Shown here piece after piece: positions 2,745 to 28,109 of a stretch of DNA of 29,764 nucleotides. The stretch covers positions 1 through 29,764 of IMG/VR virus record IMGVR_UViG_3300021963_000475; one strand, written 5' to 3'. The notes below the pieces were generated by a model, which saw only the letters and a program-made list of their open reading frames with translations, was not told the origin of the DNA and made no database searches. The stretch comes from a virus (taxonomy: Duplodnaviria > Caudoviricetes). The position numbers and the translations under genes were made by a program. Each line of letters starts with the position of its first letter. Positions within the stretch are counted from its first letter, which is position 1.

Positions 2745-3005
2745 TTGCCTAAGTTCACCATTACTATCACCGACGTAGAAGCCGCAGCCCTCGCGCATGT
2801 GATGGCAGACCCGCAAGAGTGGGCGCAGAACGCGATCAGCGAACGTGCTCGGGTCGCTACGGAGGAGATCGTGCAGCGCGAGGTCGCTCGCATGGTTGCC
2901 GACCCAAGCATTACGGAGATTCCTGCTACTGCTGCTGAAATTGTGATGGCGGCTGCGCTTCCAGAAACTCTTACGCACACGCCAAAGATTTCCGGTGATG
3001 TATGA
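2745..3005 (+). CDS. Small protein downstream of the fibre (possible fibre chaperone)
   Basis: TTG start after GGGAG RBS, ATGA-coupled to the next gene. Function is inferred from position only. Confidence 0.55.
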   Translation: MPKFTITITDVEAAALAHVMADPQEWAQNAISERARVATEEIVQREVARMVADPSITEIPATAAEIVMAAALPETLTHTPKISGDV

Positions 3006-3736
3006 CTATTTTTGGTAGTGGGCATCAAGTAGTAACCAGTACAACTCGCCCGGGAAGCCCTATTGTCGGTCAGGTTATCTATGAAACGGACACGTTTAGT
3101 TACCGTTGGTGGACTGGCGCTGCATGGGAAGGAGTGGTGCCAGTTGGCACAGTCCAACCGTTTGCTGGGGCGACTGCCCCGAGCGGGTGGCTTTTCTGTG
3201 ATGGTGCCGCAGGTACGGGCGCTGGAACGGGTACGCTAAATGGTTCTGCTGGTCAGCCTTTTGCTGCTTTGTGGGCAATGATTGGCAATACTTACAACGT
3301 TGCTGGAACGCAGTCAGCATTCTATTTGCCTGATATGCGCGGACGCGCACCTGTTGGTAAGGGCGCGAACGCTGCTGTCAGTGCGTTGAATAACAACGAT
3401 GGTCTCGCCAACGCGTCTCGTAGTCCTAGCCATTCCCATACAGTAAATTCGCATAACCACACAGTTGATTCGCATGCCCATGGGCCGGGTGGGTATAACG
3501 CTCGCTGGGTCGCTGGCGGTAACATCTATTACGCTCAGGTCGGCGGCGCTGGCAACTGGGGCACAACTGTGTACGGTGGTGTCCAGACAATTGGCGCTAA
3601 CGCTGGCACTCTTGGCGGTGGTCTCATTGTGCAGGGAAGCAGCGACGCGTCTGCGCCGGGAACCAATTACTCGTCTCCGGGGACGACCGCTTCCGGCGGT
3701 TCGTACGTTACGTTGAACTACATCATCAAGTATTGA
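3002..3736 (+). CDS. Tail-collar domain protein (short fibre)
   Basis: PVGTVQPFAGATAPSGWLFCDG..LWAMIGNTY..FYLPDMRGR, SHSHT/SHNHT His repeats, C-terminal LNYIIKY. Confidence 0.85.
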   Translation: MTIFGSGHQVVTSTTRPGSPIVGQVIYETDTFSYRWWTGAAWEGVVPVGTVQPFAGATAPSGWLFCDGAAGTGAGTGTLNGSAGQPFAALWAMIGNTYNVAGTQSAFYLPDMRGRAPVGKGANAAVSALNNNDGLANASRSPSHSHTVNSHNHTVDSHAHGPGGYNARWVAGGNIYYAQVGGAGNWGTTVYGGVQTIGANAGTLGGGLIVQGSSDASAPGTNYSSPGTTASGGSYVTLNYIIKY

Positions 3737-3960
3737 GGTATAAAGTGAACACTGTTCTTATTTCCGTAAAGAATCCGATGACTGGCGAGATGATTGACAA
3801 CGTTGAAATGAAGTTGTTTTTCAACATCAGTTATGACGAGCACAACACTCGTCTTGTCGTGACCGGAATGTCGGAGATTTTCCTTGGCGACGACAACAGC
3901 GTTATTGACCGCGGAGTCATTACTGAACCCGATGTTATCCCGGAGATCCCTAATGGCTAA
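3733..3960 (+). CDS. Hypothetical protein
   Basis: Fills the gap between two tail genes and overlaps both. No recognisable motif. Confidence 0.45.
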   Translation: MRYKVNTVLISVKNPMTGEMIDNVEMKLFFNISYDEHNTRLVVTGMSEIFLGDDNSVIDRGVITEPDVIPEIPNG

Positions 3961-4663
3961 AGCATTCCCGGGTCTTGGCGCCACTGTGTGCGACACGATC
4001 AGTGATCTTCCGTCGTCCCCAACTGAAGGGATGATTGCGTATCAAAAAGATACGAATGAATTGAAGATTTATGATGGCTCACTGTGGGTAACGATGATGG
4101 ACACTGATGCTCCCCCGGGCCTTGTCCTTATTCAGCCAACAAGTGTCGTAAACGCCACTAACTCATCTGGTTCAATTACGTTTTCCAACGTTGCAAGTTT
4201 TAGTGTAAACGGTGTTTTCAGTAATCAGTTTACTAATTACAAAATTGTTGGGAGTATTTCTAATCCAGCCAATGTCCCCCAAAACGCTGTGATCAGAATG
4301 CGTTCTGCCGGTACAGACAACACATCTGCTGTTTATACAAAGATTCAACAGTACAGTTATCCAACTTCTGGCCCGTCTAGGGATGCGTATAACAATCTGA
4401 CATACGCTGGGTTTTGCTCTATGAGTAGTACGCAGAATGCTTTTAGTGGAGATGTTATGACTCCGTTTGCAGCAATGCCGACGTACGGACTTTTCTTGGG
4501 TACGTTCATTGGATCCTCAACAAGCATTGAGGCGGGAACGTTCCAGTGGGTTCATAATGCAAATTCTTCGTTTGATGGATTTACAATTGGAGGCCCGGGC
4601 GCTGGCGGATCGAATAACGTGTCTGGGTGGTTGCGCGTTTACGGGTATAGAGACAGTGTCTGA
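3953..4663 (+). CDS. Putative minor tail protein
   Basis: Likely start ATG 3953 (MAKAF) after GGAG. PSSPTEGMIAYQKDT..YDGSLW repeat and the terminal VYGYR are typical of phage tail-appendage proteins. Confidence 0.6.
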   Translation: MAKAFPGLGATVCDTISDLPSSPTEGMIAYQKDTNELKIYDGSLWVTMMDTDAPPGLVLIQPTSVVNATNSSGSITFSNVASFSVNGVFSNQFTNYKIVGSISNPANVPQNAVIRMRSAGTDNTSAVYTKIQQYSYPTSGPSRDAYNNLTYAGFCSMSSTQNAFSGDVMTPFAAMPTYGLFLGTFIGSSTSIEAGTFQWVHNANSSFDGFTIGGPGAGGSNNVSGWLRVYGYRDSV

Positions 4664-6955: not shown

Positions 6956-7974
6956 TGGCAAAGCCAGTTAAGAAGAATACTCCCGGCCCGTACGATACGC
7001 CGTTTATGACTAAACGCGAGCGTGAGCGTAAGGCTCAGCAGACTGCGCGTGGTGCTGTTGAGAGCGTTACTGATATTGAGAATCGGAGGCGGCGTGAGGA
7101 ACTTGCTGCTCAGGGGATTACTCAGTCGTTTCAGCAGATGCTTGCTCAGCAGGCGAATGCTCAGGCTAGTCGCCTTGCTGCTATTCAGGGTGCTGCTGGT
7201 GAGAATGTTGGTGCTGGTACTCTTGCTGCTTCGATTACTGGTACGACGCAGGCTGCTGATCTTGCGCCGCGTCTTGCCGCTGGCCGCGGTACGGAGATTC
7301 AGTCTGATGTTGCTGCTCGCGCGTCGCAGGCGCGTAAGGAGCGGGCACAGGATTTTCGCAAGTATTTGACGCAGGCTCGTGCTGATGTCGAAGCGGGCGA
7401 GCGCGAGAAGCAGGCGGCACAAATCGAATCTGCTGCTACGGCTAAGGCTTATGATCTCAAGTTGAAGGATTATGAGCGTGGTGTGTACGAGTCTGATCGT
7501 AAGTACGAACTTGATCTTGCTAAGTATGAAACGCAGTTGGCTAAGGCCGACACGGGTAAGATTGATGATCTTATCCCGACGTTTACTTCTATTGCTAAGG
7601 ACTCCGCATCTAAGAAGGGCACCGGTGGTTGGGAGGGTACGGTCACTTATACGGATTCCATTGATGGTAAGCAGAAGAAGATTGATGTCAAGGGTGTCGC
7701 GTTTGACCCGTCGAAGAAGACGGGCGCTCAGCGTGATGCGTTTTGGAAGAAGTATGTTGAGCAGAAGACTGGGGCTAAGGTCTCAGGCATCCCTGTCCGA
7801 AATGTTGAGCGCGGTTCTACTAAGCGTTCTCCTTCTGAGATCGCCAAGATGATGTTTGAATCGGCGGGTACGCTTGGTTCGTTTAGCGATGCTGAGATCT
7901 ATCAGGCTATTATGCGCACTCCGTTCGGCATGATGAATGCTGCTGCGGTGCGAGAGGCATATCAGGGGCTGTAG
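6955..7974 (+). CDS. Putative internal virion/ejection protein (coiled-coil, Ala/Gln-rich)
   Basis: Helical A/Q/E-rich N-terminal half. TAATG overlap. Directly precedes the largest gene. Confidence 0.55.
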   Translation: MAKPVKKNTPGPYDTPFMTKRERERKAQQTARGAVESVTDIENRRRREELAAQGITQSFQQMLAQQANAQASRLAAIQGAAGENVGAGTLAASITGTTQAADLAPRLAAGRGTEIQSDVAARASQARKERAQDFRKYLTQARADVEAGEREKQAAQIESAATAKAYDLKLKDYERGVYESDRKYELDLAKYETQLAKADTGKIDDLIPTFTSIAKDSASKKGTGGWEGTVTYTDSIDGKQKKIDVKGVAFDPSKKTGAQRDAFWKKYVEQKTGAKVSGIPVRNVERGSTKRSPSEIAKMMFESAGTLGSFSDAEIYQAIMRTPFGMMNAAAVREAYQGL

Positions 7975-7975
7975 A

Positions 7976-10900
7976 TTGCCCCCGCTTCCGCGTAACCCTA
8001 AGAGGGGGCCAATCGTCATTACGTCGGGGCCGGGCCGCCCTGCTCCTATTAAGAAGCAGCCACTCCCGGCTTACGGGCCGTACAAGTTGCCGCTTACGGA
8101 TGTTGAGAAGCGCATTGTTATTAAGAAGCGCACGCCTAAGTACATTGATACGCCGCAGGGGAGGATCGCTACTGGTGGTGGTGGCGTTGGATTCTTCACT
8201 AAGGGCGACAAGGGTAAGATCATGGGGCGCGTTCGTGAGCGTGCCATGGAGCGCGAGGGTGCGTTGCGCGACAAGGTTGAGCGTCAGCGCGTTGCTGCGT
8301 CGGAGCCTCGGCTTGCTGCTCCGCCGTTGCCTAGCCTGAAGAGCGTTGTTCGCGAAACGAAGAAGGAGGATTCTAACACGGGTTTTCTTGAGGGGCTTGC
8401 TGACGACATTGGTCTTGACGACTTTTATCGGGACAATGTTCTCCCGACGGTTGGTCGTGCTTTTGGTCAAATGTTTGAGAATGCGAAGGAAACGTATGGC
8501 GTTAGCGTTGTTGCTCCGGGCCTAAACATTGCTCGTACTGTTGCTGACGCTACGGGTGTTAGTGACAAGATTGATGAGCCGTTTGATTATGCAGCGAACC
8601 TTGTCAAGGGTGGTGCTGGTATCGCGAAGACGCAGGGCTTTGATCGTGCTAAGCCGTATGTTGCTGGTGTGATTGATGGTGCTTCGAAGTTAGGCAAGGG
8701 CGGAGTTGAGGCTGTTGGCAAGGTAGATGATTTCTTGCAGACAGAGGTCCCTGTTTACGATTCTGTGAAGACGTGGACTGATCGTAACGCTGTGCAGCCG
8801 TCAAAGGATGCGGCCGTTGAAGTGTTGTCGCGTGTGACGGATCAGCCGATCAATAAGCGTATCGATAAGGCTGATGAGTTTGATCGTAACTTTGTTTATC
8901 AGGCTAACGATATTACGCAGCGCGGGATGGAGCGCGAGACTGCTGCTCCTCAGGAGCGCCGTGATGTGTGGGTGCAGATGGCGCTTGGCGAGTTTGACGA
9001 TCCGGCTTGGGAGGGTTACAAGTCTCCGTTTACTCGCGAGCAGTTGGAGCGAATGTCGGATTACGAGTTGGCGAATGCTGCGTATGGTACGCATACGAGC
9101 ACGATTGCTTCGTTGTTTGAGGCTGCTAAGAATGATCTGAAGAAGATTGGCGCTATGCCTGCGGCGATTGGCGCGTTGTCGCGACAGATTCAGGACGCGA
9201 ATGACAAGGGTGATTTTCGCGGTCTTGGCAACATGGCGGAGTTCCTTGTTCGTCAGGGCGTGTCGAACATGGTGGCGCTTAGTAAGGCGAACTTGTATGT
9301 GATGACTGGCGGCAAGGCTGGTAATTATCAGGATCTTGTTCGTGCTTTGCAGGCTGAGCCGATTCTCACTGGTCTTGATGTTGCCTCCACGGCAACGATT
9401 TATGGCAAGGCCGCGACGTTTGGGTTGAAGTCTGGCGGCGCCCTTACTAAGGCTGGCGCTGTTGCTAGCCGCGTCCCGGGTGCCGTTCCTGCTGGCCGTG
9501 TTATTGCTCGTGGCGCTGAGGCTGCTGCCGCTCGTCCTATTGCCGGTGCTCCTCTTCGGGCTGCTGCTACGACTGGTCGCGGGTTGCGCCGTATTGCTGA
9601 TGTTGAGGAGGTTCAGGTTCGCGATCCAGCCATGGCTGCTGTCGGGGATATCGCTGGCGCAACGGTTGGTGCTGACCGCACGTTCAGGCCGTCCTCCTCG
9701 TTCTTCTCTAAGTCTGCTTCGCTTTTGCGCAAGCGGCTATACGAGGGGAACAATCCCGTTTCGCGTGCTATCTACAAGCGCGGAGAAGTCGCTGACGCTA
9801 GCAAGTTCCGCGCTATCGCGTCTGCTGTTGTCGAAGAGTTGGGAACTGAGCGTGCCGCTCCTGTCGTCAAGGCGTTCAAGGAGATCTTTGATGAGGATCC
9901 AAACGTGGCGTTGCGCGTCATGTGGGATCTCAGCGGTTCTGAATCTTTCAAGATGCCTGAGGGTCTTGGTGGTCGCGTTGTTGATCTGACTCCGGGTAAG
10001 CGTGCTGACGAGTTGGAGGGCGTACTTGCTGGGCAGTTGTGGGTTAGGCGCGGCGGCAAGGATGGCGATGATGCGTTTAGGTTTAGCGATGCTTCTCCGG
10101 GGGAGGGTTGGGCAAACGTTGTCACCAAGAAGCCTAAGGGTATGCCCAAGGGTACCGTTATTAAACTAAGTAAGATTGAGAAGGCGAACATTGAGCAGAG
10201 CATTCTGCTTCTTCGCAAGATTGACGAACTCCCAGAAGATGTTGTTGCACGCGCTAAGGAGCGCCTTGACGCTCCGTATCGTGAACAGTTTGGCGAAACG
10301 ATTGGTAAGCGGATTGGCGGGCGTAACGCCCCAGAGGGTTCGCTTACTGATGTTCTGCAGTTGCAGGAGTTGCAGAACATGCGGAGCCTTGATCGGCTCG
10401 GAGTAAATATCGACCCACGTATTGCTGATATTTCTCCGGGTGTACAGTCACGTTTGTCTGAGCGGTTCGGTATCGGGAAGCCGACGAGTATTGGGCGTCG
10501 TGATGTTGCTGGTATTGCTCGTCTTCAGGACGAGACAATCGCGCGTCTGATGCCGCTGGTTGGCGACGAGTTCCGGGCGGAGATTGAGAAGATTCTCTCT
10601 GAACAAAAACTAGAAGTATCTAAGCGTCTTGTTGATCTTGAAAATAAAAAGGTCGCTATTGAAAAATCCAAAGAGAACCTTTCGGAATTCGTTGACAACA
10701 TTGATGAACTTGACGCTGAGATTAGTTTGCTTGAGGAAAAACTTGGCGCACTGAATGCGGAAAACCCCGAGGTTGTGCAACTTACTCATCAAGAGGCTTG
10801 GCGGTTTGCGTCTAAGGCTGCTGATTTTTGGAAGAAGTTGTATGGGAAAGCAAATGGTGGCGCTGGGTCTGTCGACGCTCCGACTTGGAAAGATAGCCCA

Positions 10901-13900
10901 GTCACGAGTCCCGGAATTGTTCTCGGTATAAAAACGGGAGATGCAACGGGTAGTAATACTTCTGGGGTTTCTGGTTTCTGGACTGGTATTGACGGTGTCA
11001 AGCGCTATGTAAAGCAATATGCTGATCGGAATCAGGCTGTTGGCGAGGTCATCGCTAACGAGATCTATCGTCGTCTTAGTGCTGGCGCTCCGGTAAGCAA
11101 GATCACTTCAAAGTACAGTGACGATACTCAGTTTGTTGCTAACGACATTATCGACGTCTTCAAATTTGAGAAGTCGTCTTTTGATGTAGACGAAATTCAG
11201 CAGTTGTCGGAAAAAATTGTTGACCGTATTGTTGCTGATTTGTGGCTAGCGAATTGGGATGCGGTTGGAGTAGGCGGGGAAAACATTGGCATTACCGTCG
11301 AGACAAATATTCCCGTGCGCCTTGATCAAGGCGGTGCGCTGTTCCACCGTGCTCAGGGAGAACTAAAGACTAGTGCCCAACTGGATAACTTTAGTATTGA
11401 GGATTTTGTTACTCAGAATCCGAACTATAAGGCAGTGATTAACAATGCTGGGTACGAGAATGTCGCGGACATTGAGGGTCTTGGTCTCCAACTTCTTGCT
11501 ATCCATAAACTTATTGACGATTCTGGTGGCCTATCTCGTTTTGTCGACGATCTTACAAATGATCTTGACGTAAGCCAATCGTATAAAAGCGACCTCTACA
11601 ATCTTCTTGAGAGGAGGCTCGCCGTTCTTGACGAGCAAATCAGGATTTCTGATAACGACTTGGCGCTGTGGAAAAAGTCTTTTGCTAAGTCTGATGAAAC
11701 TGTTGGTGACGTTGGCGATGCCGACTTGCCTACGCTTACGCCTGCTCAAGTTTCGTCAATGAAAAGTTCTCTGAACTGGTATATGGGAAGTGGCTACTGG
11801 GATATCAACACTGCTCTTAGGGGAAGCAGTCCAATTAACAGCAGTGTTCAGAAGTCTATTGACAATATGGACAGCCTCTTTGATCTAGCACCTGTAACTG
11901 AAAAGCCTATGATTCTTTTCCGTGGTATTGGAGATCCGGGTACATACGATGATATTCAGGCTGGGGAGATTATTGCTGATAAGGGATTTCTTTCTACGTC
12001 GTTCAAGCCAATGACTGCTGAGGGTTTCGGTGGATCACAGGGTCAGAAGGGGATTGTTCTTGAGATTTATTTGCCTGAGGGGAGTAAGGCTGTATATGGG
12101 CATGGCGCTGCGCATGAGGGTACTGGGACGCTTAGCGCTACGTCTTTTGCTGGTGGCGAAAACGAAGTAATCCTTCCTCGCGGGACAGAGTTTTACATTA
12201 CGGATGTTGCGAATTATGGAAGTGGCGCCAAACTCGCTCGTGTTTATGCGATTACTCCGGGTAGCAAGTTCTCTATCGAAGATATTCCAGAGTTTGGTGG
12301 AACTAAGCAGAAGGGAATGATTGAGGAAGCGCTTCCGAAGAAGTTGGAAAAGAAGCAGTTGGCTGTTCAGGCGAAGAAGGCAATTGAGGATCAGTCTAAT
12401 TACGAGAGCGTTGTTGCTGATCTTGAGAATGCTAAGCGTGAATACACGGCTATTGACGACGCGTTGAAGGATATTGACATGATCGCTGAGTCGCTTATGC
12501 GTGACGTGATTGAGTCCGGCGCTATCCCAACTGGCGCTCGTGTGCATATCCCGACGCTTGGTAGTCCTAAGGGCGCTAAGAAGACTGTGCTTCCTAAGGA
12601 GGCGCTTGCTGGTCGTGGTCGTCCTCGCGACATGCTCAATATTTATACGGGGCAGTTTGCTTTGCTTGGTTCGGTTGAGGATCTTGAGCGGTTCTCTGGT
12701 GCTCTTGCGCGCAATCTCCGTATTCCGTTTGTTGCGTTTGAATCTGTTACTCGGTTTACTGATTACTTGATGCGTACCGGTACTACGATCAAGTTTTCTG
12801 GTGATAAGGCCGCGTTTAAGAAGCAGAAGGCTGATCTTCTTGAGGCTGGAATTATCAACGGCAATGGAGAACTTGGTTCTGATTATGTTGTTCTGCCGGT
12901 TAACGAGCAGACTGGTTTTCTTGATGCTGACTCTTTTGCCAAACTTGACTTCAAGAGGGCTGAGGAGGTTGGCACAAAGGGGCGTAGTGATGCTGGAGTT
13001 GATGACGCGCAGATTGCCGTGATCTTTGAAAAGGCCCTGAACGACAATGCGTTTGACAATCTTGATTCGATCAAGCCGGGAAGCCGCGTTGTCATTCTTA
13101 GCAAAAAGCGCCTTGATTCGTTGAAGAAGGAGATGGCTGCCGCCGCCGAGAGTCCCGGTCTATTGCGAAGGATCACTCGCCAGTGGGTTCGCTTTACTCT
13201 TACGACCCTCCCTCGTACTCCGATTGCGAATATCGCTGGCTCTGGTTTGTTGTCTGCACTCGGTGGTGGACTTGGCGGATACCCGGAGGCAATGCGTATG
13301 CTGCGTCGTGGTCAGGCTCCGCCAGAACTGTTGAACAATGGTTTGGCTGGTTCGTTTGACGAGGGTGGAGATCTCGTTATTGCTCCTGAGCGTGGCGCCA
13401 AGTTCCGTGGTGCCCAGCGTTACATGAACTACATCTATTACTACAACGTAATGGGCGAGGACCTTGCTCGCTTGTCAGTATTCATGCAGGCCATGAAGCG
13501 CGGCCTGAAGGACCCGAAGACTCGCGCCAAGATTGATGCTGAACTCAAGGAAGTAATGGATCTTAACGATTCCTTCCAGACCCTTCTTGAGGCTGTCTCT
13601 CGTGGAGAGTTTGCGAATGGCAAGGCGCTTACACCAGAGTTAATCAAGATTCGCGATAACGCTTTGCAGAAGGCTGATGATTTTCTTGGTGGCGCTCGCG
13701 GGTTGACGAGTCGTCAGCGTCTTGTTACTACTGCTGTCCCGTTCTGGATGTGGTACAAGCACATCTTCAAGTTGTACTTCTATACGCTTCCGTTCAAGTA
13801 TCCGGGTCGGTCGCTTGCCCTGAATGCGATGGCTCGCCTTGGCGCTGAGGAGTCTGCTCGTAATGGCTTCTACGATTCGTTCTACGAGGATGCAATTAAG

Positions 13901-14503
13901 GTTGGCGAAGAGGCGTTCGGTAGCAACATTTATTCCAAGGGGCTTGCTACCAACATCTTCCCGTTCAACTTTGGTGGCGCTCTTGAGTACGACGAGGGCG
14001 CTCCGGGTGTCCAGTTTGCGCTATCGAACATTGCCCCGACGATTACTGTTCCTGCTCGCCTCGCTGGTATTGGCATCCCGGGTGCTCCAGTCATTGGCGC
14101 TGGCGGAGAGCGCCTGAAGCCGGGCGACGTGTTCGCTCCGGGTTATGCTGAGGCTGCCGTATCTGAGGCGGAGAAGTTGTTTGCTCCCCTTGGTCTTGCC
14201 CAGAGCACACTCGCTCCGCGATCTAGTCTCATCTTTGATGCGTATCGTCTTGCCGCTGGTCAGCCGTTGCCTGAGGCGCAGCAGCGTGGTGAGGGTGAGC
14301 AGTACGCCGTCACTCCGCGTGGCGCTGCTGGCCTTGGGTTGCCGCAGTCTGTGCTTGATATGTTCATGCGCAGTTTTGGTTTGAGCGTTGTCCGCACGCC
14401 TGTCAGGGGGCCGGTTGCCGAGCGGCGCATTCGTGACGAGCAGGCTCGCCTTGAGGAGGAGGCGCGGAAGCGCTATCGCGAGAGCCTTGGGTTAGACTAC
14501 TAG
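7976..14503 (+). CDS. Very large internal virion (ejection/polyvalent) protein with inserted kinase-like and ADP-ribosyltransferase domains
   Basis: Probable TTG start at 7976, just after the upstream stop. Kinase-like motifs YVK, EVIANEIY, DLWLANWD..N, RLDQGG (about 10950-11630). R-S-E ART motifs Y..INTALRG, LFRG, FLSTS, ENEVILPRG (about 11735-12260). C-terminal PFWMWY region resembles large phage ejection proteins. Confidence 0.8.
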   Translation: MPPLPRNPKRGPIVITSGPGRPAPIKKQPLPAYGPYKLPLTDVEKRIVIKKRTPKYIDTPQGRIATGGGGVGFFTKGDKGKIMGRVRERAMEREGALRDKVERQRVAASEPRLAAPPLPSLKSVVRETKKEDSNTGFLEGLADDIGLDDFYRDNVLPTVGRAFGQMFENAKETYGVSVVAPGLNIARTVADATGVSDKIDEPFDYAANLVKGGAGIAKTQGFDRAKPYVAGVIDGASKLGKGGVEAVGKVDDFLQTEVPVYDSVKTWTDRNAVQPSKDAAVEVLSRVTDQPINKRIDKADEFDRNFVYQANDITQRGMERETAAPQERRDVWVQMALGEFDDPAWEGYKSPFTREQLERMSDYELANAAYGTHTSTIASLFEAAKNDLKKIGAMPAAIGALSRQIQDANDKGDFRGLGNMAEFLVRQGVSNMVALSKANLYVMTGGKAGNYQDLVRALQAEPILTGLDVASTATIYGKAATFGLKSGGALTKAGAVASRVPGAVPAGRVIARGAEAAAARPIAGAPLRAAATTGRGLRRIADVEEVQVRDPAMAAVGDIAGATVGADRTFRPSSSFFSKSASLLRKRLYEGNNPVSRAIYKRGEVADASKFRAIASAVVEELGTERAAPVVKAFKEIFDEDPNVALRVMWDLSGSESFKMPEGLGGRVVDLTPGKRADELEGVLAGQLWVRRGGKDGDDAFRFSDASPGEGWANVVTKKPKGMPKGTVIKLSKIEKANIEQSILLLRKIDELPEDVVARAKERLDAPYREQFGETIGKRIGGRNAPEGSLTDVLQLQELQNMRSLDRLGVNIDPRIADISPGVQSRLSERFGIGKPTSIGRRDVAGIARLQDETIARLMPLVGDEFRAEIEKILSEQKLEVSKRLVDLENKKVAIEKSKENLSEFVDNIDELDAEISLLEEKLGALNAENPEVVQLTHQEAWRFASKAADFWKKLYGKANGGAGSVDAPTWKDSPVTSPGIVLGIKTGDATGSNTSGVSGFWTGIDGVKRYVKQYADRNQAVGEVIANEIYRRLSAGAPVSKITSKYSDDTQFVANDIIDVFKFEKSSFDVDEIQQLSEKIVDRIVADLWLANWDAVGVGGENIGITVETNIPVRLDQGGALFHRAQGELKTSAQLDNFSIEDFVTQNPNYKAVINNAGYENVADIEGLGLQLLAIHKLIDDSGGLSRFVDDLTNDLDVSQSYKSDLYNLLERRLAVLDEQIRISDNDLALWKKSFAKSDETVGDVGDADLPTLTPAQVSSMKSSLNWYMGSGYWDINTALRGSSPINSSVQKSIDNMDSLFDLAPVTEKPMILFRGIGDPGTYDDIQAGEIIADKGFLSTSFKPMTAEGFGGSQGQKGIVLEIYLPEGSKAVYGHGAAHEGTGTLSATSFAGGENEVILPRGTEFYITDVANYGSGAKLARVYAITPGSKFSIEDIPEFGGTKQKGMIEEALPKKLEKKQLAVQAKKAIEDQSNYESVVADLENAKREYTAIDDALKDIDMIAESLMRDVIESGAIPTGARVHIPTLGSPKGAKKTVLPKEALAGRGRPRDMLNIYTGQFALLGSVEDLERFSGALARNLRIPFVAFESVTRFTDYLMRTGTTIKFSGDKAAFKKQKADLLEAGIINGNGELGSDYVVLPVNEQTGFLDADSFAKLDFKRAEEVGTKGRSDAGVDDAQIAVIFEKALNDNAFDNLDSIKPGSRVVILSKKRLDSLKKEMAAAAESPGLLRRITRQWVRFTLTTLPRTPIANIAGSGLLSALGGGLGGYPEAMRMLRRGQAPPELLNNGLAGSFDEGGDLVIAPERGAKFRGAQRYMNYIYYYNVMGEDLARLSVFMQAMKRGLKDPKTRAKIDAELKEVMDLNDSFQTLLEAVSRGEFANGKALTPELIKIRDNALQKADDFLGGARGLTSRQRLVTTAVPFWMWYKHIFKLYFYTLPFKYPGRSLALNAMARLGAEESARNGFYDSFYEDAIKVGEEAFGSNIYSKGLATNIFPFNFGGALEYDEGAPGVQFALSNIAPTITVPARLAGIGIPGAPVIGAGGERLKPGDVFAPGYAEAAVSEAEKLFAPLGLAQSTLAPRSSLIFDAYRLAAGQPLPEAQQRGEGEQYAVTPRGAAGLGLPQSVLDMFMRSFGLSVVRTPVRGPVAERRIRDEQARLEEEARKRYRESLGLDY

Positions 14504-22721: not shown

Positions 22722-22910
22722 TTACCTCTTTCTTTCGATGATGTAGTGCTCCGTATGGCCAGAGCGCTTGATGAACGTGACTTTCCCTTTCTTGTTCATC
22801 AGGTCGTGAGCCTCGCTTGTCGTTGCGACAACGTGTTCGGTGTTGCCGATCCAGACGTAGGCGAGGCTTCCCAAGTTGGGGCGGGTGATGCTAGCGGGTG
22901 TCTGCTGCAT
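22722..22910 (-). CDS. Hypothetical protein
   Basis: 62 aa, co-oriented, ends 3 nt before the next start. Confidence 0.5.
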   Translation of the reverse strand: MQQTPASITRPNLGSLAYVWIGNTEHVVATTSEAHDLMNKKGKVTFIKRSGHTEHYIIERKR

Positions 22911-22961
22911 AGTCGTATGGTAGTTGAGGTTTCTTACCTCAGATGTTTGGTGTTTGTAAAT

Positions 22962-23057
22962 CTTGGCACCCCTCTGGCTGCGGGGAAGGGGACGCGGCCA
23001 GAGGGGGAGAGACAGCCACTTGTCTCATCAGCGGCGAGAAGGGGAGCCGCTGCCAAG
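22962..23057 (-). ncRNA. Four-way-junction structured RNA with two UCCCCUUCYC loops
   Basis: P1 22962-68/23051-57. P2 22969-82/22993-23006. P3 23009-14/23021-26. P4 23031-35/23046-50. The two 10-nt loops are nearly identical. Strand is assumed from the flanking genes. Confidence 0.65.
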
Positions 23058-23100
23058 TTGAGCAGGCACACCCTACCTGCGTGCGCCTATCGTAGCAGGC

Positions 23101-23256
23101 TTACGCCTTGCTGTCTGGATTCTCTTTGGCCGGGCTTGTCGGAAACTTGCTATCCATTTTGCTTGGGAAGTTTTCCGTTAGCCAAGAGCGGTAGTCGCGA
23201 CCGCCGTCGAAGTCGATGTATCGAACGGTTCTCTTGGTGGTCTTCTTCTTGTCCAT
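23101..23256 (-). CDS. 51-aa hypothetical protein (not in the ORF track)
   Basis: MDKKKTTKRTVRYIDFDGGRDYRSWLTENFPSK..KA*. Starts 2 nt after the upstream stop. Confidence 0.55.
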   Translation of the reverse strand: MDKKKTTKRTVRYIDFDGGRDYRSWLTENFPSKMDSKFPTSPAKENPDSKA

Positions 23257-23258
23257 GG

Positions 23259-23606
23259 CTAAATCATATCACCCCACGTTGTGTCATCGATAACGCGGTC
23301 GTCAATGTAGAGCATGTCGATCCACACACGGTGGTATGCGGCGAGGTGCCGCTCGTCACTGATAGAAGACTTGAAGTTATCGTAATCAATGTCGTTGGTG
23401 ATCTTGGCAACGAATGCTGCCCAGCGTTCGCGGCTGCATTCCATGCGGTGCGGGTAGTCGGCGTTCTCGTCCGTCCACCATACGCCGCTTGTCTCATTGG
23501 CTGCGTTGATGATGTCGTCCTTGCAGCGTGCGCGTACCAGTAGCACGTTCGGGTTGTCGCGGTGTTCGACGACGGAGAAGAATCCTAGTTTTGTCATCAG
23601 CCACAT
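23259..23606 (-). CDS. Conserved hypothetical phage protein
   Basis: GGAGG RBS before MWLMTKLGFFSVV..LLVRAR..ADYPHR..IDYDNFK. Confidence 0.7.
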   Translation of the reverse strand: MWLMTKLGFFSVVEHRDNPNVLLVRARCKDDIINAANETSGVWWTDENADYPHRMECSRERWAAFVAKITNDIDYDNFKSSISDERHLAAYHRVWIDMLYIDDRVIDDTTWGDMI

Positions 23607-23809
23607 GGCTTGTCCTCCTCCGGGTTCTGGCGGTAGTAGATCTCCAGCATCAGGTCGGGCAACTTCTCGTCGCCGTCCTGCGATGCCTCGTACAGTGCGC
23701 GGTTCTCCTCCGGCGTGAGGTCGTCCGCATCGATGATGAGCATGTCGTGCGCTGCGCATCCGCCATGCGAGTGATCAGCCATGTTGTACCACAGGATATT
23801 CTTGGTCAT
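23597..23809 (-). CDS. Hypothetical protein
   Basis: AGAAGGA RBS before ATG 23809. Confidence 0.6.
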   Translation of the reverse strand: MTKNILWYNMADHSHGGCAAHDMLIIDADDLTPEENRALYEASQDGDEKLPDLMLEIYYRQNPEEDKPCG

Positions 23810-23839
23810 GTTTTTGTTCCTTCTGTCGGGTGCGGATCT

Positions 23840-23877
23840 CACCCCCGCCCGGAGTGATGGATAGTCGGGCGGGGGTG
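23840..23877. terminator. 12-bp GC hairpin (terminator-like or processing/stability stem)
   Basis: CACCCCCGCCCG/CGGGCGGGGGTG perfect inverted repeat with a 14-nt loop, 7 nt after the DUF932 stop. No U-tract. Confidence 0.5.
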
Positions 23878-23884
23878 GATTCGG

Positions 23885-24877
23885 TTAGGCGGCGAGCGCC
23901 ACCGCCACGCTGCGATCCTTCAGCGTGATGGACTGGTTGGCACCGAGCAGGTTCTTGTCGATGAACTTGTCGTCGGAGCGGTGCGTCTTGCTCCAGTCGA
24001 CGTACTCGGCGACGGCCTGCACGAATCCCCACTTGGTGTGCTTCACGTTGGCGAGGTTGTCCACGTCCCATGCGGTGTGGATGGCGTCGCGCGTGTTCTG
24101 TGCGATGGTAAGGCCGCGCGTGGACTCGTCGTCCTTGGGGGTCGGGAGCGGGACGAGCATCTCCAGCATGCGGTCGAACGAGATGCGGTTGATCGGCTGC
24201 GCGATGAGCGTGTCGCCGAGCGTCTGCAGTTCGTCGAAGTAGGCGTTACTGAAGCCGAGCATGTCACGCGCGTCGCGCACCTTGTCGGTCACGTTCGGCG
24301 TGTGCCGCCCCTTCCACATGTTCTTGGCCTCCTTCATGCTCCACTGCAGCGTGTTCTGGCAGACCACCCGGATCGGCGTGGTGTACACGCTGAGTGCGGT
24401 GTTGCCGTCGTGCCCGTTGCAGAGGGTGACGTAGGGGTCGATGCGCTCGTCGGGGTCGCCGCCGATCAGGATGTCCCTGTTGAGGCGGGCGAGCGCCCAG
24501 ATCTTGCGCCCGTTGTAGAGGCTACCGGCGGTGTGATAGTGCGCGTCGCCCTTGCCGATGATCTCGTCGAAGAAGTCGAAGGCGTCGACGTTCTGGATCA
24601 CCTTGTAGTGCGGGGTGACGATGCCGAGCGCCTCGCCCGTGTCCATGCGGACGTTCGCGACCTTGTTCGGGATCAGCGTGGTGGTGTCGGGCATGTCGTC
24701 GCCGTTGGGGATGTGGACGTGAATGTCGTGCTGTTCCACCGTCCAGTCCAGTCCGGCGAGGCTGATGGCCTCCGCGCTGGTGACCACGTCGGCGTCGATG
24801 ACGGTGCCGAGGCGGTGCCATGCGGGCTCGCGGTTTCCGTAGAACGCTTTGTCGTGCTCCATGATGCCGTGGCTCAT
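23885..24877 (-). CDS. DUF932 / phage-plasmid-like protein (TIGR03299-like)
   Basis: R.PAWH.LG, AGLDW.V, Y.VIQN..AF, AGSL..GR..W, N.HDG, TPIRVVCQNTL, RHT. Confidence 0.88.
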   Translation of the reverse strand: MSHGIMEHDKAFYGNREPAWHRLGTVIDADVVTSAEAISLAGLDWTVEQHDIHVHIPNGDDMPDTTTLIPNKVANVRMDTGEALGIVTPHYKVIQNVDAFDFFDEIIGKGDAHYHTAGSLYNGRKIWALARLNRDILIGGDPDERIDPYVTLCNGHDGNTALSVYTTPIRVVCQNTLQWSMKEAKNMWKGRHTPNVTDKVRDARDMLGFSNAYFDELQTLGDTLIAQPINRISFDRMLEMLVPLPTPKDDESTRGLTIAQNTRDAIHTAWDVDNLANVKHTKWGFVQAVAEYVDWSKTHRSDDKFIDKNLLGANQSITLKDRSVAVALAA

Positions 24878-24885
24878 GTCGTGCT

Positions 24886-24950
24886 CCCTTCTGTTGGTGT
24901 ACCCATAGTGTGGCACAAGATTGTGGGTTGTTTTGTAAATACTTTGTGAG
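24886..24950 (-). promoter_or_regulatory. Repeated early promoter/leader cassette, copy A
   Basis: CTCACA-N5-TTTACA, CACAATCTTGTG palindrome, CACACT -10-like hexamer, TACACC, AGAAGGG. Confidence 0.75.
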
Positions 24951-24959
24951 TATTTACCG

Positions 24960-25044
24960 GGGAACCGCGCTGCTCAACGAGGGCAGATTATTCGGGCCTA
25001 ACCATTCCCGATTTTGACCCCGTGGTTAGCGGGTCGTGGTTCCC
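24960..25044 (-). ncRNA. Four-way-junction RNA with a 7-bp loop-loop kiss
   Basis: Closing stem 24960-68/25036-44. Hairpins at 24970-86, 24992-25011 and 25016-35. Loops CTAACCA (24998-25004) and TGGTTAG (25023-29) are complementary. Strand is uncertain. Confidence 0.65.
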
Positions 25045-25077
25045 TTGGGAGAGGTTCGCCGGTACCGGCTAGCCTGT

Positions 25078-25138
25078 CCGCAGACACCCCCGTCGTGGCG
25101 GGTGTTTCGTCCGGCGCTCATCAGTGCGGGATGCCGGA
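25078..25138 (-). ncRNA. Type I hammerhead ribozyme (1-bp stem II plus pseudoknot)
   Basis: UCCGGC-AUC-CCGCA-CUGAUGA-G-CGCCGGA-C-GAAA-CACCC-loop-GGGUG-UC^UGCGG. Full core, stems I and III, GUC triplet, and loop II GCCGGA pairing with 5' UCCGGC. Confidence 0.92.
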
Positions 25139-25147
25139 TGTTTCGTG

Positions 25148-25582
25148 CTAGTCCTCTTCGACGTGCGTCACTTCTGCGTCGTAGTACTCCACCTCTGTGT
25201 CGATGGAGTCGTAGTGGCTCACGTCGATGCTGTCGACTCGGCCGAGCGCCTCGTCGCGGGCGTCGTCCTCACCGTTGGCCTCCACCTGAAAGGTGATCGT
25301 GACGGGCACGTTGACGGTCACGTTGTACGTTTTCGTCAGGCTGATGCCGACGAGGGTGCGGACGAGGTCGGCGCGGTCGTCGTCGCCGCCGGCCCAGTTG
25401 CGCAGGTCGTCGATCCAATCGGCCTCGCAGTCCTTCGCGAAGGGTGCGAAGACATCAGCGATCAGGCTGCGGAGCATTCCGATGGTGTCGTCCTTGCGCA
25501 TGCTCTTTTCCTTGAGCAGGTGGATCTCTGCGCGGAGGATCTCCGGGTCGGCGGTGTCGGTGGTGGTGATGGTGTCGGTCAT
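25148..25582 (-). CDS. Hypothetical acidic protein
   Basis: GAGAAGGG RBS before ATG 25582. VEA..ED.A.D.A motif is common in small early phage proteins. Confidence 0.7.
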   Translation of the reverse strand: MTDTITTTDTADPEILRAEIHLLKEKSMRKDDTIGMLRSLIADVFAPFAKDCEADWIDDLRNWAGGDDDRADLVRTLVGISLTKTYNVTVNVPVTITFQVEANGEDDARDEALGRVDSIDVSHYDSIDTEVEYYDAEVTHVEED

Positions 25583-25590
25583 GGTGTAGA

Positions 25591-25656
25591 TCCCTTCTCG
25601 TGGTGTACTTACAGTGTGCCACAAGATTGTGGCTTGTTTTGTAAATCCTTTGTAAG
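25591..25656 (-). promoter_or_regulatory. Repeated early promoter/leader cassette, copy B
   Basis: CTTACA-N5-TTTACA, GCCACAATCTTGTGGC palindrome, CACACT, TACACC, GAGAAGGG. Confidence 0.78.
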
Positions 25657-25658
25657 GA

Positions 25659-25883
25659 TTATTCGGCGTCGTCCGGGTAGTCGTAGTCTCCGGCGTATTC
25701 GTTACGCATTGCCGTGGTATGCGCCTCGCTGATCAGTCGCCGAAGTTCCCAGATCATGGTGCGTTCCGGGTTGATCGACGCCGGGGTATTAGTTAGCAGG
25801 GTCAGTCCGTCGATGATGGATGCCATCTCGCGGATGGTCAGTGTGTCGGCGATGATGTCGTGCCGCTTCTCTGTAGTGCTCAT
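25659..25883 (-). CDS. Hypothetical protein
   Basis: GAGAAGGGG RBS before ATG 25883. Confidence 0.65.
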   Translation of the reverse strand: MSTTEKRHDIIADTLTIREMASIIDGLTLLTNTPASINPERTMIWELRRLISEAHTTAMRNEYAGDYDYPDDAE

Positions 25884-25895
25884 ATCTGAATCGTA

Positions 25896-25933
25896 CCCCT
25901 TCTCTAGTGTCTCGTTTGTACGGATTTTGTTAG
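25896..25933 (-). promoter_or_regulatory. Partial cassette, copy D (no palindrome)
   Basis: CTAACA-N5-CGTACA..ACACTAGAGAAGGGG. Confidence 0.45.
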
Positions 25934-26745
25934 GGCTGCTGCAGGAATCCGTGCCGCGTACCCTCCTGCCCACGCATGCGCCCCTTCGCGCGTAGCCCGA
26001 CGATCACGCCGCCCGGGTCAGTGAATCGGAGATCGTGCGCATCACCGTCGACGACGGCGTACGTGTCGCCCCATGGTGCCGTCCACGTTGCGGGCAGCGG
26101 TGCACCCTTGCGCGTCGCGAATACCACGGCCACCCGGTAGCCCGCGTCAAGATACCGGCGTGCTGCTACGCCATCGCCGCCGGGATACGAATACGTCACG
26201 TCGATGCCGTGCTCGGCCGCGTCGGGCGTCGGTCGCTTTGTGTAGTCGTACAGGACGCATCCCTCCGCGATTGCGTGCGCGATCACCTCCGGGAACTTGC
26301 GGTGCCATACGATGTCCGACGTGCCGTTCAGCCGCAGGGCAGGCGTCAAGCCGTGCCGCCTAGCGTTGCGGGCGTGAAGCGTGATCTCGTGGCGCAGGCG
26401 GGCGCTGAACGCGTCCGGGTTGAGGATCATGGCCGCCGTGCGACGGATCCGGCTAGCCTGTATCGCGTTCCACCCGCTAGCGTCAAGGCTGATACCGCCC
26501 CTGCCGCTAGTGTTCAGGCACCCGGCGGTGCACTCAGTACTAGCCCACGGGCAGACATTCGCGCCCGACATAGTGGCGGGTGCGAGGTGCAGGACGGCGG
26601 GCAGGTAGCCCATATCCGCCGCTCCCTTTGCGACCTTCGGGTTCGTGGTGGTCAGCAGCCGCCCGGCCGACTTGACCGGGTAGTGCGTATCGATTGCGGC
26701 TACCGTCGCATTGACGGCGCGTAGTACGAGATTGCTGTAAGCCAT
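25930..26745 (-). CDS. GP88-like (mycobacteriophage gene product 88) protein, radical-SAM-like Cys cluster
   Basis: N.K..K, LAPA..SG..VCP.A...C...CL..SGRG, RLNGTSDI, YDYTK, DGD..DLRF.D..IVGL.AKG. Confidence 0.78.
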   Translation of the reverse strand: MAYSNLVLRAVNATVAAIDTHYPVKSAGRLLTTTNPKVAKGAADMGYLPAVLHLAPATMSGANVCPWASTECTAGCLNTSGRGGISLDASGWNAIQASRIRRTAAMILNPDAFSARLRHEITLHARNARRHGLTPALRLNGTSDIVWHRKFPEVIAHAIAEGCVLYDYTKRPTPDAAEHGIDVTYSYPGGDGVAARRYLDAGYRVAVVFATRKGAPLPATWTAPWGDTYAVVDGDAHDLRFTDPGGVIVGLRAKGRMRGQEGTRHGFLQQP

Positions 26746-26751
26746 TCCGAT

Positions 26752-26818
26752 TCCCCTTCGTTCGGTGTAGTCACACTGTACCGCACGATTGCGGCACGGT
26801 TTGTAAGTATTTTGTAAA
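26752..26818 (-). promoter_or_regulatory. Repeated early promoter/leader cassette, copy C
   Basis: TTTACA-N5-CTTACA, CCGCAATCGTGCGG palindrome, TACAGT, TACACC, GAAGGGGA. Confidence 0.75.
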
Positions 26819-26910
26819 GATTCGCGGCCGGCCACCCCCCCTAATCGAAGGCGCACTCCTCCCTTCCTCCTGCCCTCCGGGCGCACTCCGAACCGCCTAG
26901 CCTATCCAAA

Positions 26911-26953
26911 GGGGAGCGCCGGGAATCGAACCCGGCAAGGCCAGCCACTCCCC
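26911..26953 (-). ncRNA. tRNA-like minihelix (acceptor stem plus T arm; no D or anticodon arm)
   Basis: GGGGAGUG-GCUGGCCUUG-CCGGG-UUCGAUU-CCCGG-CGCUCCCC. Canonical T loop, 5-bp T stem, 8-bp acceptor-like stem. Confidence 0.7.
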
Positions 26954-27402: not shown

Positions 27403-27476
27403 CCCCTTCCATTCGGTGTAACCACACCATACCACACCCCAACCCCCCCAAACCAAACCCTAACAAAACCCTTACA
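27403..27476 (-). promoter_or_regulatory. Cassette copy E (upstream box inverted)
   Basis: TGG-TATGGT extended -10, TACACC, GGAAGGGG. CTAACA-N5-CTTACA lies on the + strand at 27460-27476. Confidence 0.5.
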
Positions 27477-27989
27477 ACCCCAACCCGCCGAGGTGTTGGG
27501 AGGGTACGCGCGCGCGACGCCCACGCCCGAGCGAGAACCCCACCCAACGCGCCCGACCGTGTACCCATCCTCGGTCAGGTTTTTTTGTGGGTAAGGGGTT
27601 TGTGTAGGCTGCTTCTTGCGTTGGGCGGGTCGGGTATGTTCTGGATGATACTGGTGTGGGGGATATTCTTTGCCCCTCCCTAGCCTTTGGGCTAGCCAAC
27701 GTCCGTTTAGCGTGCTTGTTGTCCCTGCACGATCCGACCTAGCCGTTTCCGGGGTTGTTTGTCTGGCCGTCCGATGGAAGTCCGTGGTGCGGTTGCTTCG
27801 TCGGTGCTCCGGCTAGACGCGGAGGCTGGTGCCTTGACCCTTGAGCGTGGGTGTGGGGCTTGTGTGTAAAGAGTATCATGCTCTTTGTTCAATGATGTGT
27901 GTGCGTTTTGCACATTGTCGTGCTTGTTTGTGTGTTGGTGTTCGACATATCGTGCGAATGATCGTTATTTCGTGTATGGTTCTCGCATT

Positions 27990-28071
27990 GGCGGGATGGC
28001 GGAACTGGTAGACGCAGCAGACTCAAAATCTGCCGCCATGTGGCGTAAGGGTTCGATTCCCTTTCCCGCTA
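27990..28071 (+). tRNA. tRNA-Leu(CAA)
   Basis: Acceptor GGCGGGA/TCCCGCT+A, D loop with TGGTAGAC, anticodon arm GCAGA-CTCAAAA-TCTGC, long variable arm CGCCA/TGGCG, T arm AAGGG-TTCGATT-CCCTT. CCA is not encoded. Confidence 0.93.
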
Positions 28072-28109
28072 TTTGTTCTGTTCTATTAAAAATGCTTTAG
28101 GAGAACAAA

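Follow-up and report, generated by a model that had tools for sequence, protein, structure and literature searches.

An uncultured aquatic phage was found to carry conserved folded RNAs between its early genes, all on the minus strand, and in relatives with only 58-64% identity at synonymous sites three of the structures (B+C, A+A' and E) are still conserved, compensatory changes included. The window analyzed here is the whole stretch of 29,764 nucleotides (IMG/VR record IMGVR_UViG_3300021963_000475, Caudoviricetes), and all coordinates refer to it. From the sequence, position, covariation, exchange and complementarity observed, we infer cleavage, release and repression, and we lean, with slightly better than even confidence, toward an early region where promoter-like cassettes and small genes form an array whose gaps hold exchangeable RNA modules, two of them likely consisting of a cutter plus a payload, and in which E is predicted to damp the translation of the early leaders. 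Both the hammerhead and the tRNA mimic would set a defined 5' end for the conserved RNA that immediately follows them.

Organization of the early region

The leftward early region contains six gaps of at least 40 nt, and four of them are occupied by a structured RNA at the positions originally predicted, each beginning 1-10 nt 3' of a stop codon, also as had been claimed; the remaining two gaps (46 and 76 nt) hold promoter-like sequence only. The folded RNAs comprise a hammerhead ribozyme (B), a stripped-down tRNA mimic (A), two uncatalogued structures (C and E) and a generic hairpin (D). The first copy of the early promoter-like cassette (27404..27460, minus strand like every feature below; upper boundary approximate) was placed using repeat family D2 and a joint motif scan, and its 3' end consists of an ACACC motif and a ribosome-binding site (RBS). 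Further cassettes of the repeat family lie at 26753..26822, 5' of a GP88-family gene (25930..26745, domain match to PF17338), at 25591..25660, and at 24885..24954, 5' of a DUF932 gene (23885..24877, domain match to PF06067). The cassettes at 26753..26822 and 24885..24954 bear out the proposal that two of the structures precede a repeated cassette, and a variant promoter-like sequence, with a TTTACA-type motif kept in relatives and a function that is inferred, also follows E (22911..22961). The cassettes are called promoter-like solely for their repetition and position, and a sigma-70 scan detected no promoters. No terminator was found on the minus strand, so that the 3' ends of the payloads are undefined and the payloads may remain on the downstream message. 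Besides, features absent from the original prediction were seen, namely a purine tract after A, a hairpin with a palindromic tip between B and C, a pair of hairpins 5' of E and the promoter-like sequence behind E.

Conservation across relatives

Structural conservation in relatives, on which the original prediction depended, was found for A, B, C and E, with compensatory changes. The four-fold sites of the DUF932 gene are identical at 69/108 positions in L008 and 65/112 in L105, and the corresponding identities are 57/61 and 55/58 for the hammerhead and 26/26 and 22/22 for the purine tract A'. Two-sided changes occurred in 5 of 37 pairs of B+C and 10 of 30 pairs of E, with covariation scores reached by none of 500 shuffles in either case, and in 5 of 19 pairs of A+A', with a score reached by 1/500; these shuffle controls overstate significance, since the comparison set is about seven lineages, all related. 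Most hammerhead pairs are invariant across the aligned copies. Contigs from other runs were identical in letters, with 0 differences over 24900-25200 (X2) and over 22800-23098 (X3).

The tRNA mimic and its purine tract

Element A (26911..26953) is an anticodon-less tRNA mimic with a predicted RNase P/Z site. It has a 7-bp acceptor-like stem, a small hairpin replacing the D arm and a canonical T arm, and the anticodon arm and an encoded CCA are absent. The stack of acceptor stem and T arm measures 13 bp in 6/6 copies, although the position of the split shifts, and both acceptor strands covary. Lacking a cloverleaf with an anticodon arm, A is not called as a tRNA gene by ARAGORN or Rfam, which report the tRNA-Leu at 27989-28072 as the sole tRNA in the window; its acceptor stem stacked on a T arm with T loop, together with the reduced D arm, is the arrangement of t-elements and mascRNA. 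A-type sites occur once in the window against a mean of 0.0 in 30 shuffles, and the folding energy has z -2.2 for A alone and +0.4 with flanks. In Rfam, A has a weak match to RF01684 (26.9 bits, E 9e-4, gathering threshold 42.5).

Behind A lies A' (26846..26886), a purine-rich tract (26886-26861) in a 6-bp enclosing stem, with 24 consecutive positions invariant in 6/6 aligned copies. The tract resembles a Shine-Dalgarno (SD) sequence, and the start codon behind it is not conserved; its use as the RBS of an upstream GP88 start was rejected, given that relatives lose the frame or the start. The A' pattern had no matches in bacterial genomes and matched nine stretches in viral contigs, seven of them true, and the A+A' model gave nine matches in 44 sources, every one a training copy or a duplicate. 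No match to C or A+A' turned up at distant loci with GP88, DUF932 or terminase. It is likely that A is the front half of a cutter-plus-payload unit with A' behind: host RNase P would probably cut around 26953 and RNase Z close to 26910, and the invariant tract, now close to the 5' end so created, would serve as a stabilizer or decoy that binds ribosomes.

The hammerhead, the linker and the kissing-loop RNA

Element B (25078..25138) is a type I hammerhead with a 1-bp stem II and a 6-bp pseudoknot that joins loop II to the 5' flank, and it is the only hammerhead descriptor match in the window. The core is complete, with three stems and a NUH cleavage triplet, and is intact in 7/7 aligned copies; the pseudoknot supplies the stem I-stem II tertiary contact and shows one two-sided change (L003), its terminal pair being broken in 2/7. 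Against RAGATH-1-hammerhead (RF03152) B scored 33.3 bits (gathering threshold 56.3), over model positions 26-77 only and with the 5' hairpin missing, which places it outside that family. The hammerhead 5' pattern matched 28 stretches of viral contigs, seven of them true. B is followed by a linker hairpin (25045..25077), for which pairing with the newly formed 5' end is predicted once B has cut, and which carries a self-complementary hexamer at its tip (25066-25061). Such a palindrome is present in 7/7 copies, spelled as five different hexamers, compared to 3/195 control hairpins.

The adjoining element C (24960..25044) is a kissing-loop junction RNA without Rfam family, in which the loops 25029-23 and 25004-24998 are complementary over 7 nt. 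In 6/7 copies each loop has its own partner as best or tied best, and three different loop pairs are represented. The original description, a hammerhead plus a kissing four-way junction, stands for the hammerhead and the conserved kissing loops, and the four-way form is not constant, because the fourth arm is variable and nearly absent in L105. Folding energy lends no support to B and C (z -0.4, -1.2 and -0.65), which are supported by consensus and covariation only, nor does it fix the strand of C, the antisense being lower in 7/7. With the C model, the nine matches in 50 sources were likewise training copies or duplicates, and there were 0/151 in genomes sampled from the phylum of G005, a search with no positive control; the C pattern matched 17 stretches of viral contigs, of which seven were true and one of these new (L025). 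B is likely the front half of a second cutter-plus-payload unit, with the linker and C behind. Self-cleavage is very probable, and would fall at 25083/25082; the 3' product would open with a paired hairpin and its palindromic tip, followed by the kissing-loop domain, forming a nuclease-resistant RNA of about 120 nt, which would remain as a small RNA once its 3' end is trimmed and may dimerize.

Device exchange between lineages

The exchange slot lies 3' of the 144-aa gene without known family at 25148..25582, or of its homolog (31% identity, E 3e-11). It holds B+C in the window, L001, L006 and L008, a plain hairpin in L004, and in L101 a hairpin of 12 bp whose 6-nt loop resembles a T loop; the L101 lineage has this hairpin repeatedly, after its early genes. 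Run X7 contains both the B+C and the plain-hairpin allele, and in L025 B+C lies directly 3' of promoter-like sequence with no ORF; the metagenome scan covered 39 of 64 parts. B+C is missing in L004/L005 and in the complete relative G003, and is therefore dispensable. The predicted swap of hammerhead and minihelix at a syntenic position was observed as an exchange among B+C, the plain hairpin and the T-loop-like hairpin, the exchanged element being the 12-bp hexaloop hairpin and not A. The slot thus offers natural alleles (hammerhead unit, plain hairpin, T-loop-like hairpin), two of them within one sample. Given this allelic slot and the conserved structured 3' product of the ribozyme, cutting in order to release or cap an RNA can be tested in vitro without the host.

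A candidate anti-RBS RNA

Element E (22962..23057, z -5.6) is a four-way junction with CU-rich loops (23045-36 and 22992-83) complementary to early RBSs, and its 5' part (23062..23100) forms two hairpins, the second with a loop complementary to the ACACC(C) motif of the early leaders. The anti-RBS junction of the original prediction agrees with our pairing results, in which the CU loops fit early RBSs better than late ones: against hand-picked starts the energies were -15.6 to -18.5 kcal/mol for the cassette-proximal starts (5/5) and -5.6 to -12.9 for the late ones (12/12); a middle start (19181) paired at -18.0 and two early starts weakly (-8.3 and -11.9). For the ACACC-complementary loop, pairing energy gives no separation of early and late starts; moreover, ACACC is likely a transcription-start motif as well, and its enrichment consequently needs no antisense RNA.

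Pairing of E loops with the RBS sets of their own lineages ranked 1/24 and 2/120 among permutations, in a test with automatic start sets that include non-genes and with one L105 loop not extracted. The loop spelling, judged from these comparisons, tends to follow the RBS spelling of its own lineage, although the L008 loops match their own RBS set (7/14) no better than the foreign sets of L105 (7/12), L003 (4/6) and L101 (5/8). For E, too, folding energy does not settle the strand (antisense lower in 3/6), and a pattern that misses the window's own copy returned two matches in viral contigs, one by chance. E contains CUGAUGA, and a second hammerhead was considered and rejected, there being no descriptor match and no conservation of the motif. 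It seems marginally probable that read-through transcription at the array's end lets E accumulate, with separate loops covering the ACACC motif and the RBS, and that this negative feedback would end immediate-early translation. If so, early-gene feedback in this phage, in which no integrase was found, would be switched by RNA only.

Alternative explanations

A bolder version of the preferred explanation, which we entertain only tentatively, is that a lytic phage family uses an exchangeable ribozyme/RNase P toolkit to release three uncatalogued small RNAs, including a dimerizing RNA with kissing loops and an antisense repressor with two loops, which would read the start motif and RBS of all cassette genes, co-evolve with them and replace a protein repressor in the early-to-middle switch. 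Somewhat unlikely, in our judgment, is pure punctuation and stabilization of mRNA, in which the cutters divide the read-through transcript and the downstream message is capped and protected at its 5' end by A', the linker and C in the style of STAB-SD or SP82, with no trans-acting free small RNAs. The missing terminator 3' of A' and C, the SD-like A' without a conserved start codon, the L008 copy of C that runs straight into an RBS and gene without a cassette, and the hairpin-plus-RBS units repeated between genes of L101/L102 and L003 speak for such caps, and SD sequences stabilize transcripts, SP82 mRNA included (PMC7509114; PMC2358910). However, most lineages give the genes 3' of A' and C a promoter-like cassette of their own, L025 has B+C by itself 3' of promoter-like sequence, and a cap would need neither 24 invariant bases nor kissing loops nor a palindromic tip; E is left unexplained.

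That the RNAs target the host appears distinctly unlikely. E would then be a general anti-SD RNA that shuts host translation, and A, A' or C would be decoys for host proteins such as defence nucleases that cut tRNAs, the Y RNA partners PNPase or Ro60, or RNA-binding regulators. The CU-rich loops do resemble the design of 6C RNA (PMC6486639), A weakly matches the Deinococcus Y RNA model through its T arm and small hairpin (E 3.2), the DUF932 and GP88 neighbours are accessory early genes, and the invariance of A' suggests a conserved partner. Against this, E loops tend to track the phage's own RBS spelling, no Ro-binding stem is visible, and no Ro60 (TROVE) gene occurs in five records, three of them complete; A reached 14.6 bits of the 80 expected of a bacterial Y RNA, by the T arm only. 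Very improbable is the reading in which A is what is left of an attP site or of a tRNA, and the others are terminators or chance folds in GC-rich spacers, as might be supposed from a T-arm sequence shared by many tRNAs, the unremarkable z-scores of B and C, and D, which suits a generic hairpin. This reading is largely refuted for A, B, C and E, considering conservation far exceeding that of synonymous sites and the hammerhead core intact in all seven aligned copies; as an attP remnant A was rejected, five records (three complete) having no tyrosine integrase or serine recombinase and the covariation of both acceptor strands showing more than the 3' half of a tRNA.

Relation to known systems

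Hammerheads flank genes in phage and prophage operons, for which operon processing was proposed, and one with a 1-bp stem II and a 6-bp pseudoknot was active in vitro (Perreault et al., 2011, PMC3088659). B shares with them the type I core, the stem I/II pseudoknot, the 1-bp stem II and the location between small phage genes, and differs in being single, fused to a conserved structured 3' product and exchanged with non-catalytic devices; the purpose of hammerheads in phage operons is described as an open question (PMC6765202, PMC6155905). Punctuation by tRNA mimics is known from organelles and MALAT1, and no report of it in phage mRNA was found in the literature. Like A, plant-mitochondrial t-elements and mascRNA/menRNA combine an acceptor stem and T arm with a reduced D arm and no anticodon arm as an RNase P/Z signal at mRNA ends, whereas A is in a bacteriophage, precedes an invariant purine tract and has a predicted cleavage (PMC5499578, PMC4919922); the resemblance is one of convergence, not homology. 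The STAB-SD and SP82 polypurine 5' stabilizers likewise have an SD-like tract near a processing site (predicted for A'), but A' is stem-enclosed, invariant over 24 nt and behind a tRNA mimic (PMC7509114; PMC2358910).

The c4 RNA of P1/P7 and the CI RNA of P4, both RNase P substrates, are phage RNAs whose loop complementarity covers RBS regions of their own transcripts (PMC12197685, PMC5499578). E shares loops complementary to repeated sites at its own RBSs, with the exceptions given above, but its targets are a predicted family of repeated leaders and not an antirepressor, it has no identified processing site, and it had no Rfam match to a C4-type family up to E 10. With the 6C RNA of high-GC Gram-positives E has in common pyrimidine-rich loops on stable stems and pairing, predicted for E, with G-rich mRNA sites, whereas E is phage-encoded and without Rfam match, a four-way junction with a 5' two-hairpin domain and CU-rich loops in place of two hairpins with six-C runs (PMC6486639). 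With theta ribozymes, too, phages use a ribozyme in place of a host enzyme of tRNA processing; they are HDV-like and lie beside true tRNAs, whereas here hammerhead and tRNA mimic are separate alternatives (PMC10879173).

Phage-operon hammerheads, t-elements, phage RNAs cut by RNase P and loop-based antisense RNAs are separately known already. The claim that their combination is undescribed holds in so far as no description of the combined system was found in the literature, and is qualified by the hammerhead processing of phage operons described since 2011 (PMC3088659). The three payload motifs (A', C and E) matched no Rfam family. They may be among the 10,006 candidates mined from IMG/VR by Fremin et al. 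(2023) (PMC10690425), in four of whose supplements six contig ids and five sample prefixes had no matches, as was also the case for a control prefix.

Lifestyle, host and the generic hairpin

No tyrosine integrase or serine recombinase was found in the five records (three complete), and the phage is therefore probably lytic. Weak hints, including lysin domains, point to a host among the Actinomycetota; the pattern of the tRNA-Leu matched many phyla. Element D (23840..23877, z -5.1), originally proposed as a dedicated device, proved to be a generic 12-bp GC-rich hairpin whose position is kept and whose sequence is not, and no U tract follows it as in an intrinsic terminator. U-less terminators occur in actinobacteria, and D may be one of that type, or would act as a passive hairpin for stabilizing or processing.

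Early-region organization and its relatives

In the phage record (29.8 kb, 79% complete), structural and lysis genes run rightward and the terminase occupies the right end; the early region is read leftward and encodes GP88, DUF932, an annealing protein, an exonuclease, SSB and a resolvase. A 70-nt cassette is present in full at 24885, 25591 and 26753 and in part at 27404. At the end of each copy stand ACACC, a GAAGG-type RBS and a start codon, a combination seen five times in the window, always on the minus strand (mean of 0.3 in 200 shuffles). Repetition and position suggest that the cassette is promoter-like; a sigma-70 scan found no promoter, and weak hints point to an Actinomycetota host. 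Inside the cassette (25618-25633 and 24912-24927) lies an imperfect palindrome, and upstream of it are TTACA-type repeats spaced by 11 bp; these are candidate operator and activator sites.

Relatives came from a DUF932 search (8 viral loci, representing five sequence types), a terminase search (23 loci, with L025 added by a pattern search) and a metagenome scan (at least 15 loci, at least five of them close). An additional cassette-plus-gene module, common to L001 (about 3760-3980), L004 and L006, lies between GP88 and the purine-rich tract A'; its absence from the window is consistent with deletion between repeated cassettes.

Structured RNAs in the early gaps

The RNA system of the early gaps is real and conserved, is built from known principles and includes three uncatalogued motifs. 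As originally observed, structured RNAs follow stop codons in 4 of the 6 early gaps of at least 40 nt, each starting 1-10 nt past the stop, the other two holding only promoter-like sequence. The hairpin D (23877-23840) and the junction RNA E (23057-22962) folded far better than shuffles (z -5.1 and -5.6) and the tRNA mimic A (26953-26911) modestly so (z -2.2), while the hammerhead B (25138-25078) and the kissing-loop junction C (25044-24960) folded no better, as expected where pseudoknots carry a fold. Rfam gave sub-threshold matches of B to the RAGATH-1 hammerhead and of A to mascRNA, and no credible match for C or E. The 12-bp stem of D had been proposed as a further device; a hairpin is present there in every lineage examined, with unrelated sequence in four.

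The acceptor-plus-T stack of A measures 13 bp in 6/6 copies, the split between the stems shifting, and 5 of 19 pairs across A and A' (26886-26846) change on both sides, which bears out conservation of the minihelix. RNase P measures such a stack beginning at the elbow (PMC4919913), and t-elements and mascRNA, whose shape A shares, are RNase P/Z signals (PMC5499578, PMC4919922). About 25 nt 3' of A, A' contains 24 invariant, purine-rich positions, with no start codon conserved. A is unlikely to derive from attP, since its two acceptor strands covary and searches of five records, three of them complete, returned neither integrase nor recombinase; a membership test did not place A among Y RNAs. 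A distant GP88 locus (L022, about 3940-4010) contains one candidate tRNA-like acceptor plus T-arm match. A tRNA-Leu(CAA) (27989-28072) opens the rightward region, and some relatives carry a second tRNA, others none.

B is a type I hammerhead with a GUC triplet; its stem II has a single pair, and a 6-bp pseudoknot joins loop II to the 5' flank. It is present in 6/8 DUF932 loci and also in L025 and L105; the B+C unit is absent from L004/L005 and the complete genome G003. Across seven copies of B+C, 5/37 pairs change on both sides and 0/500 shuffles reach the score, but most hammerhead pairs never vary. The predicted conservation of hammerhead and junction is supported. The kissing loops of C occur in three versions, the own partner being best or tied best in 6/7 copies. 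Cleavage at the predicted site (25083/25082) would let the new 5' end pair into the linker hairpin between B and C, whose tip is a palindromic hexamer in 7/7 copies, in five spellings (control hairpins, 3/195), which suggests dimerisation by analogy with the retroviral DIS. No ORF separates the B+C unit from the promoter-like sequence ahead of it in L025, and in L008 an RBS comes directly after the unit. Identity to the window was 69/108 and 65/112 at four-fold DUF932 sites for L008 and L105, respectively, 57/61 and 55/58 at hammerhead positions, and 26/26 and 22/22 in A'.

Exchange of devices

Behind the 144-aa gene (25148-25582), the slot holds B+C in the window, L001, L006 and L008, a plain hairpin in L004 and, behind a homolog in L101 (E 3e-11), a 12-bp hairpin whose loop reads GUCRAA. 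Sequencing run X7 contains the B+C allele as well as the plain-hairpin allele joined at 25143. Devices thus alternate at a syntenic position as anticipated, but the tRNA minihelix is not among the occupants.

Cassettes are missing from the distal early region of the L101/L102 lineage, and each of 4 contigs has 4-6 copies of a hairpin-plus-RBS unit, mostly preceded by a 12-bp hexaloop hairpin; a similar repeated unit in L003 has the loop GUCACA. As this loop differs from a canonical T loop, cutting of these hairpins by RNase III or some other nuclease is a serious alternative. The repeated unit (L101 3918-4800; L102 3344-4790; L003 1-420) follows stop codons and comprises a 12-bp hairpin with a GUCRMA hexaloop, a 5-bp hairpin and an RBS; its CAUCCGGCA part resembles the sequence flanking the hammerhead on the 5' side, a hint that the two share a recombination junction. 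Within the L101/L102 leader RNA (about 300 nt; L101 about 3295-3600, L102 about 2790-3100) lie a longer tRNA-like element and an antisense tract that complements the repeated RBS of this lineage. The predicted pairing of the tract with the first RBS would enclose the tRNA-like element; an RNase P cut could free either the RBS or the tract.

Complementarity of E to early ribosome-binding sites

In six copies of E, 10/30 pairs change on both sides, supporting the predicted anti-RBS junction as a conserved structure. With hand-picked starts, its CU-rich loops paired at -15.6 to -18.5 kcal/mol with cassette-proximal RBS regions (5/5), at -5.6 to -12.9 kcal/mol with late ones (12/12) and at -3.3 to -12.4 kcal/mol with 6/7 middle ones, the seventh reaching -18.0 kcal/mol. 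Window loops matched at least 7 nt at 5/10 own candidate starts, 0/14 in L008 and 0/12 in L105; L008 loops matched 7/14 own and 0/10 window starts, and fit L105, L003 and L101 as well. The cognate assignment ranked 1 of 24 and 2 of 120, with lineages non-independent and start lists including false genes. A 5' hairpin (within 23100-23062) has a loop containing GGUGU in 11/11 loci scanned, complementing ACACC(C), which precedes 33/81 candidate starts upstream of E and 4/39 downstream (background 10.6%) and probably doubles as a transcription start-site motif; early and late starts were not told apart by the pairing energy of this loop. Sequence complementarity is suggestive, not proof, of E as an antisense RNA on early leaders.

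The gene behind E begins about 7 nt past a -10-like hexamer without an RBS (22910-22925), with ACACCC in codons 4-5, and is possibly leaderless.

Possible mechanisms

We somewhat favour modules in which a cutter RNA would free a payload RNA (A' behind A, C behind B) and a separate antisense RNA would feed back, all dynamic steps of which we infer, as a search for sequencing runs carrying the region listed no RNA run. Pure capping of downstream messages, with which the lack of terminators and the STAB-SD precedent (PMC7509114, PMC2358910) agree, appears distinctly less probable, and host-directed decoys are more doubtful still. Several of the elements have precedents: hammerheads flanking phage genes, including an active one with a 1-bp stem II as in B (Perreault 2011, PMC3088659); c4 and CI, RNase P-processed phage RNAs, the c4 loops targeting RBS regions (PMC12197685, PMC5499578); and 6C RNA, acting through C-rich loops (PMC6486639). 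Searches of the open-access literature turned up no description of a t-element in a phage, of payload RNAs of this kind or of an exchange between hammerhead and tRNA mimic.

Other features of the window

Where the early and late regions diverge, non-coding sequence between them (27660-27760) is about 80% conserved in L092-L097 and L105, lineages that otherwise share little in that area, and could be a packaging site, an origin site or another RNA. A 2188-aa protein (7937-14503) with an Alt-like ADP-ribosyltransferase domain (residues about 1273-1430) is likely a virion-borne host-takeover protein.
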